Part shown: piece after piece, positions 2,115-16,658 of the stretch
Layout: every line of letters starts with the position of its first letter
Numbering within the stretch: position 1 is the first letter of the stretch
Virus record (IMG/VR): IMGVR_UViG_2565956720_000017
Origin: a virus
Taxonomy: Duplodnaviria > Heunggongvirae > Uroviricota > Caudoviricetes
Length of the DNA: 18,278 bases
Reading direction: 5' to 3' (one strand)
Notes under the pieces: model-generated
What the model was told of the DNA's origin: nothing
Databases searched by the model: none
Seen by the model: only the letters and a program-made list of their open reading frames with translations
Position numbers and translations under genes: made by a program

Positions 2115-2883
2115 TTATGTTATCCCGCCCAATCATGAAGGCGGTTATATTTATGTGGCGCTTTCTGACATTGGATTAGTTAAGGTTGGAAAAACCAGAA
2201 ATGTTTCAGCCAGAATGAAACAGCTATCCACTGGTAGCGGCATCGAAATCACTAAAGTTGAGGTGTTGGGGCCATTTGTTAATTACGGACAAGTTGAGTT
2301 AGCTATTCATGCAAAACTTTCATCAGAACGCCGCTCTGGTGAATGGTTTTCTGCCGATTTGGATACGGTTAAAGCAATTGCCATCGACGCATCAAGAATT
2401 GGCACTCCAGGTACGAAGTTAGTTAATAAAGATGTTAACCATCCAATAATTGTTTACTTGTGGCTTGACGCACATGAGAAACACACCGAGTACGAGAAAA
2501 AACTATGTGAAATACTGTCTGATAGAGCAATTAACTTTCTTAATAATTATGGTGCGCCTTGCGTCCCATATGTTGCTTTATGCATTCATACAATGGGGCA
2601 GGTCATTCTTCAACAAGGCCAAAAGGCCTACTCTGTGTATCCACGAGGATTTGAAGCGTCCTCATTGCATCAATTAAGGGAGGATTGGGGGAATTTTGCA
2701 GATAAAGATATTTTCGAAAACTCTGAATTTGACGAGTTTCTTATAGATATAAGCGATAAAGATAAATTTAAGTCCGCGGCTGAGAAATGGAGGTCTGAGG
2801 CAATAAATAATCTTTTCGCAGAACTTACAGATGATTACCAGCGCTGGTTAGCCCGCCACATGGAGGTGAGCAGCCATGCGTAA
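2107..2883 (+). CDS. T5orf172 (GIY-YIG-like) domain protein
   Basis: 258 aa. The start overlaps the previous stop (ATGCGTAA) and GGGGGTGA lies upstream. The N-terminus GYIYVALSDIGLVKVGKTRNVSARMKQL...ELAIHAKL...RRSGEWFSADL is the T5orf172/MUG113-type signature. The C-terminal half is AT-rich with no recognisable motif. Confidence 0.65.
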   Translation: MRNYVIPPNHEGGYIYVALSDIGLVKVGKTRNVSARMKQLSTGSGIEITKVEVLGPFVNYGQVELAIHAKLSSERRSGEWFSADLDTVKAIAIDASRIGTPGTKLVNKDVNHPIIVYLWLDAHEKHTEYEKKLCEILSDRAINFLNNYGAPCVPYVALCIHTMGQVILQQGQKAYSVYPRGFEASSLHQLREDWGNFADKDIFENSEFDEFLIDISDKDKFKSAAEKWRSEAINNLFAELTDDYQRWLARHMEVSSHA

Positions 2884-3434
2884 ACCTGTCTTTTATGCCG
2901 GGCGCACTGAAATCTCTGTCATTAAATTCGATGACATTCAGGTGCGCATAGTGAGTATCAACGGCGAACCGTGGTTTGTTGGCGCTGATGTGTGTGCTGC
3001 GCTGGAAATCAGCAATGTTACTGATGCCGTTTCAGTTCTGGATAACGACGAGGTAATGACCCTAGCTTTAACCGAGGGGCATTCCGGTAAGCGTGGTGGT
3101 GCCAGAAGCTGGAATGTTGTCTCTGAATCAGGTTTCTACAAACTGATCGCCCGCAGCCGTAAAGCTTCCACACCAGGCACATTTGCGCACCGTTTCAGTA
3201 ACTGGGTATTCCGCGAGGTTATCCCTTCAATCCGCAAAACGGGGGGGTTATGGTGTTCCGTTTGCCATGCTGAATGATTTCAGTAAACGCCAGGCTGCCT
3301 ATCAACAGGAAGCCAGCAAACGCGGTTACAGGTTACAGCAATGCAAAGAGGCAAAAGATGCACTGGAACGAGAAGAGCGGGCGCTATGGCGTAAATATCA
3401 GCCTGATTTTCTGGAGGGTGAAAACAATGTGTAA
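2876..3434 (+). pseudogene. BRO-N domain antirepressor-like protein, interrupted by a +1 frameshift at a G7 tract
   Basis: The frame starting at 2876 (GGAGGTGA SD) encodes a BRO-N domain (FDDIQVRIVSINGEPWFVGADVCAALEI) and stops at 3277 shortly after GGGGGGG at 3241-3247. The adjacent frame then continues from the same tract to a stop at 3434 (GGYGVPFAMLNDFSKRQAAYQQ...). One fewer G would give a single protein of about 186 aa. This is either an assembly error or a real inactivating or slippage-prone tract. Confidence 0.6.
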
Positions 3435-7745: not shown

Positions 7746-8243
7746 ATGACAAAGCTGACCATAAACAGAAAACCGAAGGGCATTTACGGCACGCCGCAGA
7801 AAACAGCACAGGCGGCGCAGCAGCAGAATAAAACCACATCGGCGCATAAAGTGATGCCAGATAACCAGAACACACAGCAGAAGCTCACAGGAGCAACACC
7901 GCGGCGGCGTATGACCAAACAGCAGCGTAAAAACCGCAGACGCGTTAACCGTCTTATTGAGCTATGGCCTGAATTATTCAGCCCGGAATCACCTAAGCCG
8001 CTTAAGGTGGGGATATTTGACGACCTGATACAGGATATTGCCGCGAGAGGTATTTCACTCGGACAGGGAACACTACGCGCAACGCTGGCGCGTTATGTGC
8101 AGACTCCGCGCTATTACCGCGCCCTGGTAGCTGGTGGCGCGCGTTACGACCTGAAAGGCCAGCCGTGCGGCGAGGTAACACCACTACAACAGACGCACGC
8201 AGGAAAACTACTGGAGGAGATGAATGGAAATAGTAAGAAATGA
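7746..8243 (+). CDS. ProQ/FinO-domain RNA-binding protein
   Basis: 165 aa. [30 protein letters not shown]...[11 protein letters not shown] parallels the E. coli ProQ N-terminal domain (PLKIGIFQDL...VDLDGNPCGEL) as I recall it. The N-terminus is basic and Gln-rich. Confidence 0.8.
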
Positions 8244-8640
8244 TCACGCACATGGTCGCCGTGCAGGTGATCACATTGTGGATGAAATGGCGGAAAAACA
8301 AAGAGTTGACATTATTGTCAGTGTCACAGTCGAGAGCGCGAAGCGCCAAAATAAGCGTATAAATGATCGTTCAGATGTACATGGTGTGATCACTCGTTTA
8401 CGCCAGACTTTTGTAACTCGTGAAGAGATGATTGAAGCTATTGACCAGCATACAGCATGTATCAGCGTCAGGGATATACCGGAGGTCATTGCTAACTACT
8501 TCATGATCACCAGACGCCTTTACCGGAGAAAAGACAAGAGCACGGTTAACCGTCTCCTGATGTCTGATATTCGCGAATACCTGCAAGAAAGGGGCTATGT
8601 GAATCCACCAGAACAGCGCTACGGAAGAGTCGGAGGCTAA
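8224..8640 (+). CDS. hypothetical protein
   Basis: 138 aa. The start overlaps the end of the ProQ/FinO gene and has GGAGGAG upstream. It is AT-richer than its neighbours and has no motif I recognise. Confidence 0.5.
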
Positions 8641-9310: not shown

Positions 9311-11842
9311 ATGCCAGTCGTACCAACAGTATCCGGACGTCAGGTTGAGAGCCGTGGAGTTCAGTCAGCAGGCTTGCAGACGTTTTCTCAGCCAGGTATT
9401 AGTGATGCTTTTGTTCGTGCAGGAGCAGAGGCAATTGATGTTCTGGGTCAGGCAAAACAGCGTGCCAATATTGCCTTGGTTCAGGAGGCATCCCTTAAAC
9501 TCAGTCAGACAGGCAGTGATCTGCTGAATAATCCTGAAACAGGATTGCTTAACCTGAAAGGGAAAAATGCTATTGGAAAAGGCCATGAGTATACGCAGCA
9601 GTTTGATGCTCAGGTCGAACAACTGGCTATGTCGCTGCCGGATGAACAGGCCCGTAATGCTTTCATGCAGCAGGCACAGCAGCAGCGCATTCAGTTCACT
9701 ACGCAGGCCGGGCGGTACGAGATCGGGCAAATAAATGCCTACGAAGAAGGCCAGTTTCAGGCTACGCTGCTGAACAATGGTAAAAATGCCGCAGCATTGT
9801 ATGGCGACAACGCCGCATACGTATTGGCTAATAAGCAAACTTTCCAGCAAATTGAGGAGTACGGCATTGCGCATGGCTGGAGCGACGAGCAGATTCGGGC
9901 CAGGAAAATCGAGTTTAAAGAAGCAACAGCAAAAGCAACTGCTCAAAATGCTATTGGAGCAAACTATCTTCAGGTAAGACAGCAAAACGGCGAGTTAAGC
10001 GATACTGCTGCTGGAGCTCGCCGTGCTGTAGCAGATAGTGGATCTTCCGATCGTACCCGCGGTATACGCAACAATAACCCCGGCAATCTTGAATACAGCA
10101 AAACTAATCCGTGGGTTGGGCAGACTGGTGATGATGGTCGCTTTGCTAAATTCGAAACACCTGAACACGGTATTCGTGCATTAGGGCGGAACCTGATGTC
10201 GTATCAGCGGCAGGGTATTGATACCGTCAGCGAGATAATTAATCGCTGGGCACCGCCTACTGATAAAAATGACACTATGTCGTATATCAAAGCAGTGTGC
10301 GAACAACTTGGCGTTTCTGCTGATGATCCTATAGATGCATCTAATCCGGATACCCTGAAGGCGCTTTGTGCAGCCATTATCCATCATGAAAACGGTAGCC
10401 AGCCATACAGTGATCAGCAGTTAACTGCAGGTGTTAGTGCTGCGCTGGGGCTTTCTCAGCTACCGACAAAAAATAAACGTTATACCGGTGTAGCCTGGTT
10501 CGATGCTTTAAGTGAATCGGATCAGGCCAGCGTGTTGCGACAGACTGATGCACTAGCCAGACAACAGCAGGCTGAATATAAAACGATGCTCGACAGCCGG
10601 GTTCGCGATGCGACAGCTGCGTATATGCGTGGCGTTGAATTTCCTAACCCACCAGGTGAGGCTGATTTTATTGCAGCTTATGGCGTCAGAGAAGGAAACC
10701 TGCGATATACCGAGTTCAGAAATACGCAGATCGCCGGACAGTATATAGGCTCTTTCCGCAACATGCCGACAAGCAGCATTACCGCATATGTTGAGCAATT
10801 GCGCCCGGATACTGGTGAAACAGGGGAGGGGTATGCGTCTCGTGCGGAGTTATTCGACCGGGTATCGGCGGCAGCCACGAAGGTAATAACCCAGAGGCAG
10901 AATAATCCGTTTAGTGCAGCGGTGGAAATCGGAGCCTATAAGCCGATCACCAGCAACAACCCTGACGACATCACTGCCGAGGTGGCTAACCGTTTCTCGT
11001 CGCAGGAAAGCTTACGTTCGTTGGGAATTAATGCCCCAATCCTCAACAGTGAAGAGGCGGCTGCGCTGGCACAGCAGGTGCGCGGCACTCAGAACGTTGA
11101 CCAGACAATTAAACTGTTGCAGAGCATGGGGGAGAAGCTGCCTGCGCCAGCAATACGGCAGGTGGCATCTGTAATTGCTCCGAACAGTGCAGCAACAGCC
11201 TATTCTGCGCTGCTGCTGGGCACGCCGGATAATCAGTACGATAACACCAGGCCGTCGATCCCATATAGTCAGTTCATCGGGTATAAGCCGACGATGAACA
11301 AGTACGACGTTGCAAAGGTTATTCTTTCCGGCGACCAACTACTGAATCCGACGAAGGCCATGAAGAATGCGGGCATAACTCCGGTACAGTTGCCGAGCGA
11401 AGATAAGATGAAAGACGCTTTCGACGAACAGGTAGGTAATGCATTTGCCCGTAACCCGCAGTTACGCCAGATCAGTTATAGCCTTTTCAAAGCCGCTTAC
11501 GCAGGAATAGCTTATCAGTCTGGTGATGCATCTACGGTAAGAACCAGTATGCCTGATACAGACATTGTAGCTGATGCCGTGAAGTATGCTACTGGCGGTA
11601 TATACAATGGTTTTAATGGCGGCGACGTTGTAATGCCTTTCGGCATGGATAAATCTACTTTCAAAGATCGCTATACCACATCTGCGAAACAAGCACTGAA
11701 AGATGCCGGACTTAACGTAAATGCAGTGTCAAATTTCACGCCAGTTAATATCGGCAATAACCGGTATCGGCTGGTAAATGGTAGCGGACGCTGGGCAACA
11801 GATCCCAGAACCAATAAAGCTATTGTCGTGAGGGTTGAATAA
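9311..11842 (+). CDS. large protein of unknown function (843 aa), first gene of the cargo operon
   Basis: Long uninterrupted frame with a strong SD (AGGAGGT 7 nt upstream). It is Gln/Ala-rich and contains the conserved-looking block RGIRNNNPGNLEYSKTNPWVGQTGDDGRFAKFETPEHGIRALGRNLMSYQ. Its stop overlaps the next start (TAATG). Confidence 0.8.
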   Translation: MPVVPTVSGRQVESRGVQSAGLQTFSQPGISDAFVRAGAEAIDVLGQAKQRANIALVQEASLKLSQTGSDLLNNPETGLLNLKGKNAIGKGHEYTQQFDAQVEQLAMSLPDEQARNAFMQQAQQQRIQFTTQAGRYEIGQINAYEEGQFQATLLNNGKNAAALYGDNAAYVLANKQTFQQIEEYGIAHGWSDEQIRARKIEFKEATAKATAQNAIGANYLQVRQQNGELSDTAAGARRAVADSGSSDRTRGIRNNNPGNLEYSKTNPWVGQTGDDGRFAKFETPEHGIRALGRNLMSYQRQGIDTVSEIINRWAPPTDKNDTMSYIKAVCEQLGVSADDPIDASNPDTLKALCAAIIHHENGSQPYSDQQLTAGVSAALGLSQLPTKNKRYTGVAWFDALSESDQASVLRQTDALARQQQAEYKTMLDSRVRDATAAYMRGVEFPNPPGEADFIAAYGVREGNLRYTEFRNTQIAGQYIGSFRNMPTSSITAYVEQLRPDTGETGEGYASRAELFDRVSAAATKVITQRQNNPFSAAVEIGAYKPITSNNPDDITAEVANRFSSQESLRSLGINAPILNSEEAAALAQQVRGTQNVDQTIKLLQSMGEKLPAPAIRQVASVIAPNSAATAYSALLLGTPDNQYDNTRPSIPYSQFIGYKPTMNKYDVAKVILSGDQLLNPTKAMKNAGITPVQLPSEDKMKDAFDEQVGNAFARNPQLRQISYSLFKAAYAGIAYQSGDASTVRTSMPDTDIVADAVKYATGGIYNGFNGGDVVMPFGMDKSTFKDRYTTSAKQALKDAGLNVNAVSNFTPVNIGNNRYRLVNGSGRWATDPRTNKAIVVRVE

Positions 11843-13902
11843 TGTCTGATGTTTTTTCTTTGGCTCCAGAAGGTCAGGCATGGATTGACGACAAAACAGT
11901 TGCCAACCCAGCAAGGCCAGAAGACTACGATCCGACTCCATTCCAGGGTTCAGGTACTGCACTTTTGAGCGGCGTGGCGGAGGGGGCTCTCGGTCTCGCG
12001 CAGTCTGCCGTCGGATTCAGCAAGCGCCTGATTAGCGATCCGGCATTTACCGCAGACGTGGCACCGACTGTTAATATTTTTCGGGAGATGTTCCCTGATG
12101 CTGACAAAACACTGAATGATACATACGACACGATCGGAAAACAGTTACAGGATGCCCGCAGCTATGTGAAGCCTGATGCAGGCAGTCAGGGAATGGCGGC
12201 TGAGGTATTAAATGAGCTTGGTAAATTTGTTCCTGCAATCGGAACAACTATGTTTGGCGGTCCCCTCATCGGCGCTGCTACAGCTTTCAGTTCTACGTAT
12301 GAGCAGTCCTATCAGGATTTTAAAGGGAAGGGAGTAGACGAGGCTACGGCGCGTAACCTGGCAACGCAGCAAAGCCTTTTCAATGCTGTGGGTATGGCCT
12401 TACCCGCTGCCGTCGGCACCACACTGGCAACGCGCATTGCCTCAGGTGTGGCAATCAACACCGGATTCGGTGGACTGAACCGTTACTCTGTCGGCGCAAC
12501 ACTGGAGGAAAAAGGCTACACGGAGATGGCAAAACAGTACCGGGTATTTGACGGTCAGGCGATGTTAGTCGATGCCGTTTTAGGCGGGGTCTTTGGTGGC
12601 GTTCATCACCTGACTACCCATAATAACCATGATGGTACAGAGTCGAACATTTCTGCAGAAGAAATAAAATCAACTTTTGGTGAACATTATCAGCAATCTC
12701 CTGATGGTAACATTGAGTCAATGGTTCGTGATTTATCTGATTCAGGAGTAATAGAACTTATTAATGAACCAGCAATAAAAAATAGTGATGGAGAAATACT
12801 TCTGAATAAAGGTCATGTGACAGTAGCTTCTGGAAAAGAACCAATAATAAGAATAAATATTAATGGATTAAAAGATCATGAAGAACTGTTAGAAACCCTT
12901 CATCACGAGGCGCTTCATCTTGAGCAGCGCCATTACCCTGACTGGAAGGCCAGAAAGCTAGCTAATGCTGTACTTAAATCTGCAAACAAGCATTCTGACT
13001 ATCCTGAATTTGCATATGGGATGTCACAATATTATGAATATAAGAAAAGGGGTGAGTACCCTGAAACATATCCTGAGTGGTTGTACGCTGAAGAAGTTGC
13101 CGCACATGCAGTAAATCCATCTCTAAAGACAAGCGTTTCATCATGGGAAAAAATTATTTCAGGTTTTAAAGCCTATATATTCAGATACAGTGGTATTCAG
13201 GTTGGAACCGTTACACCTGAGCAGTTACGGTTACTCGTAAGTATGCGTCTTCGCAATATGAAACTGGAAGCCGCAGTCGAAAAAGTTTTTGGTATCCGGG
13301 CAAGGGAAAGAATAAAACCAAGCGATATTGATGCAGCCCACATTTTGAATGAGGGGCTTCATTACGATATTGAATCGTCACCAGTGCTTCACACCAGCAA
13401 TGAGAGCATCAACAGCCATGTTGACGCCATGGATGAAGCATACAGGCAACTTAATGATGGTCAGCCTGTAAATGTTGGGGGGATGGCGCGAGGGCTTGAT
13501 GGTCCATTGCGATCAGATATATCTGATACTTACCAAGAGCAATACCATGAAATACAAAAGGTTTTTGAAGAAAATGGTGTCAGATATGAAACATCATCAG
13601 AGCCAATTAGTGAATCGCCTGTCCCTCGTGCTGAAAGTGCTTTCTCATCGGCTGGTGAACACAGAGGGGACGTCAGCGTTGATCCAGATACAGGGCAGGT
13701 TCTCTCATCCAACAGCTATGACCTTATGGCTGCCAGAGACATGGCTGTTGCCAATCCTGAGCTGACTATAGCTCACCCGGAAACCGGAAACCCGACAAAA
13801 CTTTCTGATCTCCTGGCTGAGTTGGATGAACAGATTAAGACAGTCCAGAACGAATCGAAGGTTTATTCTGTAGCGGCAGCGTGCTTCTTGAGGAACCCAT
13901 AA
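11842..13902 (+). CDS. large protein of unknown function (686 aa) with Gly/Ala-rich hydrophobic segments and an inserted HExxH module
   Basis: TAATG start overlap with the upstream gene and GAGGG upstream. The N-terminal half has several Gly/Ala-rich hydrophobic stretches (for example FVPAIGTTMFGGPLIGAATAF and AVGMALPAAVGTTLATRIASGVAINTGFGG). The central AT-rich segment encodes HHEALHLEQRHYPDW. The C-terminus is acidic. Confidence 0.8.
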   Translation: MSDVFSLAPEGQAWIDDKTVANPARPEDYDPTPFQGSGTALLSGVAEGALGLAQSAVGFSKRLISDPAFTADVAPTVNIFREMFPDADKTLNDTYDTIGKQLQDARSYVKPDAGSQGMAAEVLNELGKFVPAIGTTMFGGPLIGAATAFSSTYEQSYQDFKGKGVDEATARNLATQQSLFNAVGMALPAAVGTTLATRIASGVAINTGFGGLNRYSVGATLEEKGYTEMAKQYRVFDGQAMLVDAVLGGVFGGVHHLTTHNNHDGTESNISAEEIKSTFGEHYQQSPDGNIESMVRDLSDSGVIELINEPAIKNSDGEILLNKGHVTVASGKEPIIRININGLKDHEELLETLHHEALHLEQRHYPDWKARKLANAVLKSANKHSDYPEFAYGMSQYYEYKKRGEYPETYPEWLYAEEVAAHAVNPSLKTSVSSWEKIISGFKAYIFRYSGIQVGTVTPEQLRLLVSMRLRNMKLEAAVEKVFGIRARERIKPSDIDAAHILNEGLHYDIESSPVLHTSNESINSHVDAMDEAYRQLNDGQPVNVGGMARGLDGPLRSDISDTYQEQYHEIQKVFEENGVRYETSSEPISESPVPRAESAFSSAGEHRGDVSVDPDTGQVLSSNSYDLMAARDMAVANPELTIAHPETGNPTKLSDLLAELDEQIKTVQNESKVYSVAAACFLRNP

Positions 13903-16658
13903 TGAAACAGGCATGTGTTGAAGCTATTGCGCAGACACTTGGTCGCCAGCCAAAGGCTGATGAGCTGAAAAATATTGAAGATCGTATCAAAGAAGCTGTG
14001 CAGCATGTGCACAGAAAGAATGCAAAAGAAGGAAAAAGTGGTATTCCTGATGCTCAAACATACATGGATGCAGCAGAACTGGTACGCCAGCGTGTGGTTC
14101 ATGATGTGTACAAGAAAAGACAGCGTGTTGCCCACAATGCGATCGCCATCAGTAAAATTATTGACACTCTCGATGCTAACATCCCGCCTGATCAGCAGAC
14201 ACCTGTTAATTTGCAGCAGTTTATTTTTGCTGGCCGACGATCGAGAGACAAAGCTGATATCTCCGTTACTTCTGCTGAAGAGCTTGCAATTGGGGCATAT
14301 CAGGACTGGTCCCGTCAGCTCAGTGCTGAACTTCTAAAAGCAGGTGATGACGTCCGCAAATTCTTCGAGCAGAGCAGGGCGCTTGGAGAGCAGCGGTTTC
14401 GGAGTGTATTCGACAGGCAGGCGGCAAAGTCTGCACAACTCCAGATCCTTAAAGAGATTTACGGCGAAGATACCGGGAATCCACTGGCGAAGAAAATTGC
14501 ACAGATTTGGAAGGATGTAACAAGCCGTGTTCGCCATGAGATGAACGACAACGGCTTTGACATAGGCCAGCGAGACGACTGGAATATGCCATATGTGGAT
14601 GATGCTGACCTTATTCGCAATGCCGGGCGCGAAGAATGGCTGGCATCGTTACCAGTGACAGAACAAGCTACAGCACGTCTTTCAGGTCGCCAGCCACCGA
14701 TTGAGTTTGCCCGCCAGGCATGGGTTGATGACGTTTACAACACGCAGGATCGCAGCAATTACGTTAATCCTGATGGCAGCATTATGAATGACGTTGAGTA
14801 CCGTCAGGCACTGGAAGCGATCTTTGAAACGAAGGCCACTGATGGGGCAAACAAAATTGAGCCTGGTACATTTATGGGAGCCGGAGGAATAAAGAGCCGT
14901 GGTTCTCAGCACAGGGTGATGGCGTTCAAGGATGCGCAGTCACACTTCGCCTATATGGAGCGATACACTCAGCAGCCGCTGGTGGGGGTGATGATGTCGC
15001 ACCTGCAATCATCATCCAGGGATTTGGGCGTCGTTAAAGCCTTTGGTCCGGACGCCGAAAGAAACTTTTCCCTGGTACTGGATCGCATCTATAAGCGCGC
15101 AGTAACAGGCGGGAAACGCAAAAAAGAAATGGAGGATGAGGCCAAATTAGTAGCCCGTATGTTCAACTCAATGGCTGGCCTAAATGGTGTCGCTTCATCG
15201 AGTGTGTTCTCTTCAGCTGTTGGTGGTCTGCGTAACCTGATGACCAGCGCCATGCTTGGCACCAGCGTACTGACAGCAACCAGCGACCAGGCAATTATGC
15301 GGGCAAATGCGCAGGCGCTGGGCTTTACCCGTGGTGGAATGCGGCTTTCCGTTAACACTATCAAAAACCTGTTTAGTGGAGATGCCAAAAAGGCGAATGC
15401 TGAACTCGGTCTGCTGGTGGATTCACATGCTGCTGTGGTTTCGAAAATGGGCGGGTTTGACTTGTCTCGCGGCATAACTGGCTGGTTCGCAGAGAAGACA
15501 CTGAAGTGGTCCGGGCTGATCGCTATGGACCGCGCAAACAAAGCGTCGTTTGGTCTCCTGATGTACAAAAACATTGGCGAGCTGACCAGAAAATTTAAGA
15601 CGCTGGACGATATGAAAGGAACCGATAAAACCATTCTGGCTAACAAGGGATGGAGCAATGAGGACTGGGCCATCATGGCAGCGGCAGAACTCAGGCCGAT
15701 GACTACAGCCGGGCATATGGGGATGACGCCAGACGCGATTTACGCTGTGCCCGATAACGTAATCGCCGACATTATGGCAGACCGTATTGCCCGGATTCGT
15801 GCCGGGAGTGAAAAGGCACTGGCAGCCCTTGGTGATCTCCCTCCAGAACGCCAGAAACGGATGAAAGAAGCATTCGACGCTGAGGCTGAGCAGACCATCA
15901 TGCGCATGATTCGTAATGCACGCGCTGAAGCAGCCCAGAAATTGCTGGGAATTACGCACGGTGAGATGACCAATGCTGTGACCACCGCTACGGGTATTGA
16001 TACATATGCCCGTGATGATGCTGGCGAGTTAATGAAGAGCTTCATGCTCTTCAAAACAACCCCATTTGCTGGATTTCGGCAACTTGTTAACAGAACACGG
16101 GATTTGGACACCGTTCCGGCCATTAAATTTCTGGCCTCATATATCGGGGGAACAACTCTTGCTGGTATGTTTGCGATCCAGATGAACAGTTTGTTAAATG
16201 GTAATGACCCGCTGGATATGACAAAACCAACCACATGGGTTCAGGCTCTACTGAAAGGTGGTTCGTTCGGTATCTACGGTGATTTTATTTTCCAGGACCA
16301 TACGCAATATGGCTCCAGCATCGGTGCCACTATGGGTGGCCCTGTGTTGAGCTTTGCAGAGCAGTTAACAAAATTACTGATTACTAACCCACAGAAGGCT
16401 ATACAGGGTGAAGAAACATCATTCGGTGCCGATGCACTGAAAACAGCCCGCATGATCACCCCATTCGCAAACCTGTGGTATGCGAAAGCGATAACCAATC
16501 ACCTGATATTGCAACAACTTCAGGAGATGGCAAACCCTGGTTACAATGATCGAGTAAGGGACCGCGCGCAACGGGAGTTCGACATAACGAGTTGGTGGGA
16601 ACCGGGTGCTATTGCGCCACGTAGAGCACCGGATTTTGGAAAGGCGGTGGGGAACTGA
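13902..16658 (+). CDS. large protein of unknown function (about 918 aa)
   Basis: Start placed at the ATG at 13902, which overlaps the upstream stop (TAATG) and has GAGGAA upstream. The track's start at 13881 lies inside the previous gene and lacks an SD. Gly/Ser/Ala-rich hydrophobic patches occur in the C-terminal third. Confidence 0.75.
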   Translation: MKQACVEAIAQTLGRQPKADELKNIEDRIKEAVQHVHRKNAKEGKSGIPDAQTYMDAAELVRQRVVHDVYKKRQRVAHNAIAISKIIDTLDANIPPDQQTPVNLQQFIFAGRRSRDKADISVTSAEELAIGAYQDWSRQLSAELLKAGDDVRKFFEQSRALGEQRFRSVFDRQAAKSAQLQILKEIYGEDTGNPLAKKIAQIWKDVTSRVRHEMNDNGFDIGQRDDWNMPYVDDADLIRNAGREEWLASLPVTEQATARLSGRQPPIEFARQAWVDDVYNTQDRSNYVNPDGSIMNDVEYRQALEAIFETKATDGANKIEPGTFMGAGGIKSRGSQHRVMAFKDAQSHFAYMERYTQQPLVGVMMSHLQSSSRDLGVVKAFGPDAERNFSLVLDRIYKRAVTGGKRKKEMEDEAKLVARMFNSMAGLNGVASSSVFSSAVGGLRNLMTSAMLGTSVLTATSDQAIMRANAQALGFTRGGMRLSVNTIKNLFSGDAKKANAELGLLVDSHAAVVSKMGGFDLSRGITGWFAEKTLKWSGLIAMDRANKASFGLLMYKNIGELTRKFKTLDDMKGTDKTILANKGWSNEDWAIMAAAELRPMTTAGHMGMTPDAIYAVPDNVIADIMADRIARIRAGSEKALAALGDLPPERQKRMKEAFDAEAEQTIMRMIRNARAEAAQKLLGITHGEMTNAVTTATGIDTYARDDAGELMKSFMLFKTTPFAGFRQLVNRTRDLDTVPAIKFLASYIGGTTLAGMFAIQMNSLLNGNDPLDMTKPTTWVQALLKGGSFGIYGDFIFQDHTQYGSSIGATMGGPVLSFAEQLTKLLITNPQKAIQGEETSFGADALKTARMITPFANLWYAKAITNHLILQQLQEMANPGYNDRVRDRAQREFDITSWWEPGAIAPRRAPDFGKAVGN

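Follow-up and report, generated by a model that had tools for sequence, protein, structure and literature searches.

In the annotation of Salmonella phage epsilon15 the genes of the internal virion proteins gp13 and gp14 are followed by those of gp15 (842 aa, with an HHpred match to lytic transglycosylase), gp16 (634 aa) and gp17 (918 aa), and then by the small open reading frames (ORFs) gp18 and gp19 and the tailspike gene. The subject of this analysis is a 686-aa ORF in an 18,278-nucleotide stretch of viral DNA (IMG/VR record IMGVR_UViG_2565956720_000017; this whole stretch, at its full length, is referred to as the window). By its sequence this ORF is a homologue of gp16, the middle one of the three large internal (ejection) proteins of epsilon15-type podophages, and it differs from epsilon15 gp16 in having at its centre an AT-rich cassette with an HExxH motif. 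The cassette, as judged from its relatives, is best read as encoding a divergent zincin-like 'polyvalent-protein' metallopeptidase-type domain set within an ejection protein.

The polyvalent proteins of phages and plasmids have LPD3, ART-PolyVal and PBECR1 as hallmark domains, and a zincin-like metallopeptidase, MPTase, is their commonest domain (Iyer, Burroughs, Anand, de Souza, Aravind 2017, PMC5512222). By its definition the MPTase consists of a sheet of three strands and an N-terminal helix, followed by the HExxH helix and, beyond variable inserts, a helix that supplies the Glu ligand, and the family was seeded with aa 2130-2448 of the virion RNA polymerase (vRNAP) of phage N4 (PMC5512222). 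The C1 domain of N4 vRNAP (residues 2124-2375, PDB 9PNR) has been solved, and its authors note the HExxH and report no activity (PMC13434306). A likeness to the present case may also be seen in phage P1 DdrB and plasmid ArdC/TraC1, in which a C-terminal zincin-like MPTase is part of a protein that is co-transferred with DNA, and for which autoprocessing or an effector role has been proposed (PMC5512222).

The gp16 homologue and its variable slot

The 686-aa ORF matches the epsilon15 gp16 family (phrog_1145) in collinear N- and C-terminal blocks, and it lies between homologues of gp15 and gp17, the same site that is occupied by epsilon15 gp16 and its 521-aa relatives. In a BLASTP comparison with epsilon15 gp16 the identity is 83% over aa 1-281 and 74% over aa 480-686, with no alignment between these segments. 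The full-length ORF is present at an identity of at least 95% in 37 Escherichia coli genomes, and in 36 of the 37 the identity is at least 99%. An alignment of 13 gp16 homologues (A1) and a survey of the slot in 40 IMG/VR loci divide the gene as follows.

11842..13902, + strand: gp16 homologue, 686 aa, the carrier of the cassette (phrog_1145, E 2e-136 in two stretches)
11842..12612, + strand: conserved N block, aa 1-257 (near-invariant columns in alignment A1)
12613..13311, + strand: variable slot, aa 258-490, comprising the replaced linker (aa 258-295) and the domain (alignment A1, profile of G+C content, 40-locus survey)
13312..13902, + strand: conserved C block of gp16, aa 491-686 (alignment A1; 74% identical to epsilon15 gp16)

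The initial annotation, made from the letters of the window, had described the centre of the ORF as AT-richer than its surroundings and had taken it for a horizontally acquired or swapped segment, and both points are borne out. The G+C content (GC) is 0.381 in 12610-13330, compared with 0.530 in 11842-12609 and 0.472 in 13331-13902, and in sliding 300-nt windows it is 0.33-0.35 at 12601-13050 compared with 0.50-0.56 upstream. At third codon positions (GC3) the values are 0.07-0.17 over aa 285-345 versus 0.5-0.6 in the N block; the shift in composition thus lies mainly in synonymous positions and not just in the amino-acid content, which points to foreign DNA. Among 34 sampled loci with a slot that could be delimited, the GC of the slot equals that of its flanks (0.48-0.63) in 33, and the sole exception is this allele, with 0.39 in the slot and 0.53 in the flanks.

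In alignment A1 the homologues of 521, 629-636 and 686-690 aa differ only within about aa 258-490, between flanks that are near-invariant, and the module accordingly sits in the middle of the protein, where it had originally been placed. The slot takes three forms. The first is a Pro/Ala-rich linker of 53-80 residues, in proteins of 502-529 aa (mostly 521); the second comprises 166-196 residues, a linker with a coiled-coil-like segment, in proteins of about 607-645 aa that include epsilon15 gp16; and the third has 237 residues with the HExxH, in proteins of 686-690 aa, the module itself being about 195 aa long. There is no HExxH in either epsilon15 gp16 or the 521-aa forms. The third form was seen only in the E. 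coli sequence of the window, in copies nearly identical to it and in a single Logan contig (P0003/L010, 71% identical), in which the gp16 allele follows a gp14-like gene and thus stands in a normal phage late-gene context. When phages were searched with the cassette DNA (blastn, distant mode) no match was found, a scan for the cassette across one genome per species found none, and a metagenome scan returned 100%-identical copies only. The variation of the slot among aligned homologues, with a foreign composition in this allele only, supports the view that the central linker of gp16 was replaced here by a foreign, compositionally distinct cassette.

The module is maintained by purifying selection. 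In comparison with the 71%-identical P0003 gene the proportion of synonymous differences (pS) is 0.74, which is saturated, and that of non-synonymous differences (pN) is 0.23 in the module and 0.19 in the C block, with a pN/pS of about 0.3. A second copy of the E. coli island described below differs from the window within the 686-aa ORF by 16 synonymous and 2 non-synonymous codons, of which 3 and 0, respectively, are in the module. One might suppose that the slot holds no more than a low-constraint AT-rich spacer, a filler that keeps the reading frame and contains an HExxH by chance, since the motif is short and the gp16 family tolerates very different slot contents. We find this scarcely credible, however, given these patterns of substitution and the presence in many phage genera of homologues in which the motif is invariant. 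Between the window and L010 the DNA identity of the three genes is uniformly 53-84%, and that of the module (53-71%) is at the low end of this range and does not form a separate class; a recent transfer of the module between the window and P0003 lineages is therefore rejected.

The N block contains four moderately hydrophobic Gly/Ala-rich segments (aa 39-59, 126-150, 173-205 and 235-259, with Kyte-Doolittle means over 19 residues of 1.2-1.3) and is presumably membrane-active. We note that a distant gp16 homologue of 738 aa (locus L144, 389-2602, in IMGVR_UViG_3300047661_000008) has a different additional stretch of about 100 aa (containing VRVYHSGSVGEGETGRWVSTNRQYAADY) at another site, which lies within the C block. 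No match to this insert was found in Pfam and it is not similar to ART-PolyVal; it may represent another cargo insertion site in the gp16 family.

Relationship of the cassette domain to polyvalent-protein zincins

The motif reported at 12901-12945 is present in the translation as HHEALHLEQRHYPDW, at aa 354-368 of the 686-aa ORF. The caution that an HExxH alone can be due to chance is justified, and the motif by itself is weak evidence: about 0.05 occurrences are expected by composition in the 686-aa protein, and the six-frame translation of the window, with 36.5 k positions, contains three. The following features of the domain are conserved among its homologues.

12727..13275, + strand: zincin-like (MPTase-type) domain core, aa ~296-478 (alignments A2 and A4 with DarB-like/PLxRFG domains; hhalign comparison with the N4 vRNAP HExxH-domain family)
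12904..12918, + strand: HEALH (H355, E356, H359), the proposed metal-binding/catalytic motif (invariant in A2 and A4; in a predicted helix, aa 347-364)
13090..13095, + strand: E417-E418 in AEEVAAHA, candidate third metal ligand (invariant in A2, A3 and A4; predicted helix, aa 412-423)
13192..13230, + strand: C-terminal domain motif G-x-Q-x-G-x-[VI]-T-P-x-Q-L-R, aa 451-463 (A4 columns G166, Q168, G170, T173, P174, Q176 and L177 invariant or nearly so)

When phage genomes were searched with the module using tblastn, weak but consistent matches (E ~3e-3) were found to giant proteins of 3100-4800 aa annotated as 'DarB-like antirestriction' or 'PLxRFG', in the podophages Gervaise, GP4 and Cimandef of Ralstonia, ZX1 of Klebsiella, Parlo of Serratia and POI1126 of Ochrobactrum. 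The module and these giant virion proteins have in common a collinear, unannotated domain of ~190 residues, in which the invariant positions are the HExxH, a Trp 9 residues after the motif, the EE in A-E-E-x-x-A-[YH]-A, another Trp and one Lys, as well as the C-terminal motif listed above, which here extends to a further Arg (G.Q.G..TP.QLR..R); the copies in the giant proteins are adjoined by LPD3, ART-PolyVal and PBECR1 domains. Further copies of the module, obtained from a profile search and a scan of IMG/VR, were combined into a non-redundant alignment of 22 sequences (A4), in which L, H-E-x-x-H, E-E, A, G, Q, G and T-P are invariant. H355, E356 and H359 are found in all 22 of these homologues and in 38 of 38 IMG/VR loci, one of the two scan patterns for the latter itself containing the motif.

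A relationship to the N4 domain is seen when the alignments themselves are compared. With hhalign, seven module sequences matched the N4 region alone at a probability of 83%, and the 22 sequences of A4 did so at 91%. When A4 was compared with a family alignment (A5) of the N4 vRNAP region aa 2130-2448 and eight Schitoviridae homologues, the probability was 95.0% (E 3.7e-8, score 60.5, 121 aligned columns), and HExxH was paired with HExxH and A-E-E-x-x-A-Y-A with A-L-N-E-F-M-A-W, the Glu-Glu pair (E417-E418) being matched to the N-E of the latter. Column-shuffled controls scored 14.3 +/- 2.8, and those in which the HExxH was kept scored 24.7 +/- 2.8, with a maximum of 35.1 in 60 shuffles; since the real score is far above these, the similarity extends well past the motif.

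In the initial annotation the motif was read as HExxHxxxxH with a following aromatic residue and was assigned to the WLM/SprT/DUF45 type of zinc metallohydrolase. Its zincin-like character is supported, in that the HExxH is part of a genuine and conserved zincin-like domain of a kind that occurs in proteins accompanying phage DNA (PMC5512222); the subfamily and the third ligand were wrong. The proposed further His, H364, is Asn even in the P0003 module, which is 64% identical to that of the window, and in other homologues it is Pro, Ala, Gly, Arg or another residue. The conserved candidate for a third ligand is a Glu, in the Glu-Glu pair 58 residues past the HExxH, which is a gluzincin arrangement, and the helix of this pair is separated from the HExxH helix by two predicted helices. 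The third His of SprT and Wss1 proteins is at a spacing of five residues, whereas the spacing of H364 is four, and no SprT-like, WLM or DUF45 match was found in Pfam up to an E-value of 10. A minimal metallohydrolase of the WLM/SprT/DUF45 type, with HExxH and a nearby third His, is thus contradicted by the conservation and is highly improbable.

There is a curated Pfam family model, which we take to be MPTase-PolyVal, to which the module has no match; in Pfam no MPTase model is matched by the N4 seed region or by the Gervaise copy either, and these branches are thus outside the coverage of the model. The only match of the module to Pfam up to an E-value of 10 is to FapA_N (E 0.15). A C39-like peptidase, the sole PDB match of the whole ORF (E 0.03), falls in the N block and is not credible. 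A phmmer search of 1.84 billion cluster representatives with the module found only a 74-aa fragment of the same protein, and the parent protein is presumably represented in the cluster set by an allele that has no module. A word-indexed search with the module alone gave no match and did not recover its own protein either.

The likeness to the polyvalent MPTases seeded with N4 vRNAP includes the HExxH helix, the variable helical insert and the subsequent helix with a conserved Glu, as well as the location of the module's nearest relatives in giant proteins beside LPD3, ART-PolyVal and PBECR1. It would also include the encoding of the carriers among late or virion genes and their delivery with the DNA. 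The module is nevertheless very divergent from the polyvalent copies, with 22-28% identity, no Pfam match and an 18-residue insertion before the HExxH helix, and the His in strand 2 that belongs to the consensus of the giant-protein copies is missing from it. The carriers are also different, since gp16 is an essential-type ejection protein of 686 aa without any other effector domain and not a multi-enzyme giant. In the DarB-like/PLxRFG proteins the domain is one of many and its GC matches that of the host phage, whereas here it is an outlier.

Two AlphaFold models of the module, predicted from a 10-sequence alignment, have pLDDT values (the predicted local confidence score) of 54 and 56, and as tertiary models they are not trustworthy. 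The order of elements in these low-confidence models (a short helix and three to four short strands or bridges, after which come the helix with HExxH, two further helices and the helix with Glu-Glu) is as in the description of the zincins, and the HExxH is in a predicted helix in both. A Foldseek search with a low-confidence model gave no match, and with the second of these low-confidence models only lethal factor and Certhrax were reproduced as structural matches. It is very unlikely that the cargo is a non-peptidase enzyme of the HExxH type, such as an alpha-ketoglutarate-dependent HExxH oxygenase; there was a match to such an enzyme, but it was far under significance and was not reproduced, and the HExxH...E arrangement and the polyvalent-protein context fit the definition of the MPTase.

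Possible role of the domain

The explanation that we favour, and consider to be probably correct, is that this is an allele of gp16 with a recombined zincin-like metallopeptidase-type cassette, related to the C1 domain of N4 vRNAP, which has an accessory function in the infected cell. The usual Pro/Ala-rich or coiled-coil-like linker would have been swapped by recombination with AT-richer DNA encoding a domain of ~195 residues, and this domain would be built of a few short beta strands, the HExxH helix, an inserted helical pair and the Glu-Glu helix as the likely source of the third zinc ligand. Proteins of the gp16 type would be carried inside the capsid and leave it together with the DNA, such that the domain would reach the cell envelope or the cytoplasm at the start of infection. 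That the gp16 homologue is transferred into the cell with the DNA we infer from its homology to epsilon15 gp16 and from its position between gp15 (an annotated head protein) and gp17 (an annotated virion structural protein). Zinc binding and peptidase activity of the cassette domain, its ride into the cell within gp16 and an accessory action there are likewise deduced from sequence comparisons.

Several observations weigh against this explanation. Searches of Pfam, NCBIfam and PDB sequences with the whole ORF and with the module gave nothing useful. N4 vRNAP is reported to be packaged unprocessed and its C1 domain is not known to act as a protease (PMC5512222; PMC13434306), and a non-catalytic role is thus possible for the domain family. 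Moreover, the gene is in an island without capsid genes, and the packaging of this copy would therefore depend on a helper.

The zincin-derived fold could, alternatively, be a purely structural or interaction module without peptidase activity, serving in encapsidation or in docking to partner ejection proteins. This would agree with the need for the C-terminal region of N4 vRNAP in the encapsidation of that unprocessed protein (PMC5512222), with the 2026 N4 structure paper, which gives the HExxH without any activity (PMC13434306), and with the non-enzymatic linkers that other gp16 alleles hold in the slot. However, the residues H, E, H and E-E are invariant among sequences that are only 22-28% identical to the window module, which would be difficult to account for if neither metal binding nor catalysis were involved, and we regard a solely structural role as unlikely.

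For the MPTase of polyvalent proteins it has been proposed that the carrier is processed by its own domain or that proteins of the host are attacked (PMC5512222). We tentatively suggest that the domain may cleave a host or competitor protein in trans, and this is more likely than cleavage in cis of gp16 or its partners, which we consider doubtful, because alleles without the domain are common and evidently functional, and gp16 has no other cargo domain to release. The earlier suggestion that the protein is a delivered effector or toxin is plausible by analogy with such systems.

Genomic context and significance

The genes on either side of the gp16 homologue are the following.

9311..11842, + strand: gp15 homologue, 843 aa, internal/ejection protein with a lytic-transglycosylase-like segment (phrog_992, E 1e-296)
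13902..16658, + strand: gp17 homologue, 918 aa from the annotated ATG (phrog_684 'virion structural protein', E 2e-295; RefSeq annotation)

The PHROG families to which these three consecutive large ORFs correspond carry annotations as head or virion proteins, and the first ORF also matches injection-transglycosylase families, its aa 244-364 corresponding to phrog_7182 'tail injection transglycosylase'. The stop codon of the gp15 homologue overlaps the start of the gp16 homologue, and the longest ORF of the gp17 homologue begins at GTG 13881.

The 686-aa ORF is found at 100% identity in the extraintestinal pathogenic E. coli (ExPEC) strain XM, in an element between yicC and dinD that is not a complete prophage. 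This island, which takes up the whole window, is ~18-20 kb long (loci L001, 6864-26885 in NZ_CP025328, and L072, 2577-20131 in NZ_CP066839), and its gene content according to RefSeq is an integrase, regulators of the helix-turn-helix (HTH), Rha, Ant and Bro types, an Icd-like protein, DUF4222, a DUF927 primase, SSB, ProQ/FinO, PerC, gp15-gp17 and a few small ORFs, with no capsid, portal, terminase, tailspike or lysis genes in the annotated island. A second copy, located at tRNA-Gly, matches at 98% identity over 15 kb; its genes follow in the same order, and its integrase is another one. The three long ORFs are intact in both copies, with ratios of synonymous to non-synonymous differences of 16/2 (gp16), 81/39 and 18/14. 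A random, decaying prophage remnant is not favoured, given the two integration sites with the same gene order, the intact long ORFs and the excess of synonymous over non-synonymous changes. Other gp16 alleles are mostly found in ~40-kb epsilon15-like contigs.

With an integrase, replication and regulation genes of its own, more than one integration site, and no capsid, portal, terminase or lysis genes, the island is satellite-like in its gene content and integration, and it looks like a phage satellite that keeps its own ejection proteins. We found no description in the literature of a satellite-like element that does so. EcCIMP1/Kapi1 was considered as a known equivalent and rejected, since that phage-inducible chromosomal island (PICI) is without structural genes.

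Phage P1 pacA has in its 5' part (NC_005856, 90729-90884) the pac cleavage sites and the IHF site, and positions 8241-8396 of the window share 83-85% identity with this stretch; they preserve the cleavage core and about four of the seven TGATC(A/G) hexamers. Among complete E. coli genomes the pac-like sequence is present in ~550 plasmid records, with P1-like plasmid prophages among those listed, and at 59 places on chromosomes, where the 45 records with at least 95% identity are of the island type. The similarity suggests that the satellite-like element might be packaged by P1-type phages by means of a pac mimic. It is conceivable, although quite unlikely, that the island represents a new type of satellite in which gp15-gp17 are kept under purifying selection, one of them armed with a metallopeptidase, alongside a mimic of P1 pac. 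Such an element would load helper particles with its own injection machinery or sabotage that of the helper, and the peptidase would be a delivered weapon for counter-defence or for interference with the helper.

Some other features of the island may be noted. A chimeric ORF of 138 aa (8224-8640, + strand) resembles P1 PacA/terminase (phrog_1711) over aa 5-68 and the antirepressor Ant (phrog_63) over aa 57-127. For the Ant-like part the DNA is ~82% identical to the ant gene of RCS47, a P1-like phage, and the ORF is conserved in both island copies. The regulatory region contains a T5orf172/MUG113-domain protein and a Bro-N protein (2107-2883 and 2876-3277), and since an alignment of the window with the second copy of the island breaks off at ~2839, with nothing aligned to the left, the two copies are mosaic in their regulatory module. 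In the gp15 homologue roughly half of the 120 codons that differ between the island copies cluster in the transglycosylase-like aa 279-378 (window 10175-10445, aa 289-378), which suggests a patch of recombination within its enzymatic segment. Rfam and tRNA scans of the window were empty. The context of the island may deserve separate attention.

The cassette is a rare further case of the known polyvalent-type MPTase domain, hosted by a gp16 ejection protein, and not a new system, and it marks a branch of the domain that is missed by current Pfam and NCBIfam models. The ejection proteins of short-tailed phages are usually seen as the structural builders of a conduit, and the slot in gp16 accepts enzyme-like cargo as do the giant polyvalent virion proteins. 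If the domain is an active peptidase that is delivered at DNA entry, it would provide a compact and tractable system, consisting of one 686-aa protein with one catalytic Glu and natural alleles without the domain, and this could show what delivered zincins do, including those of phage N4, P1 DdrB and plasmid ArdC.

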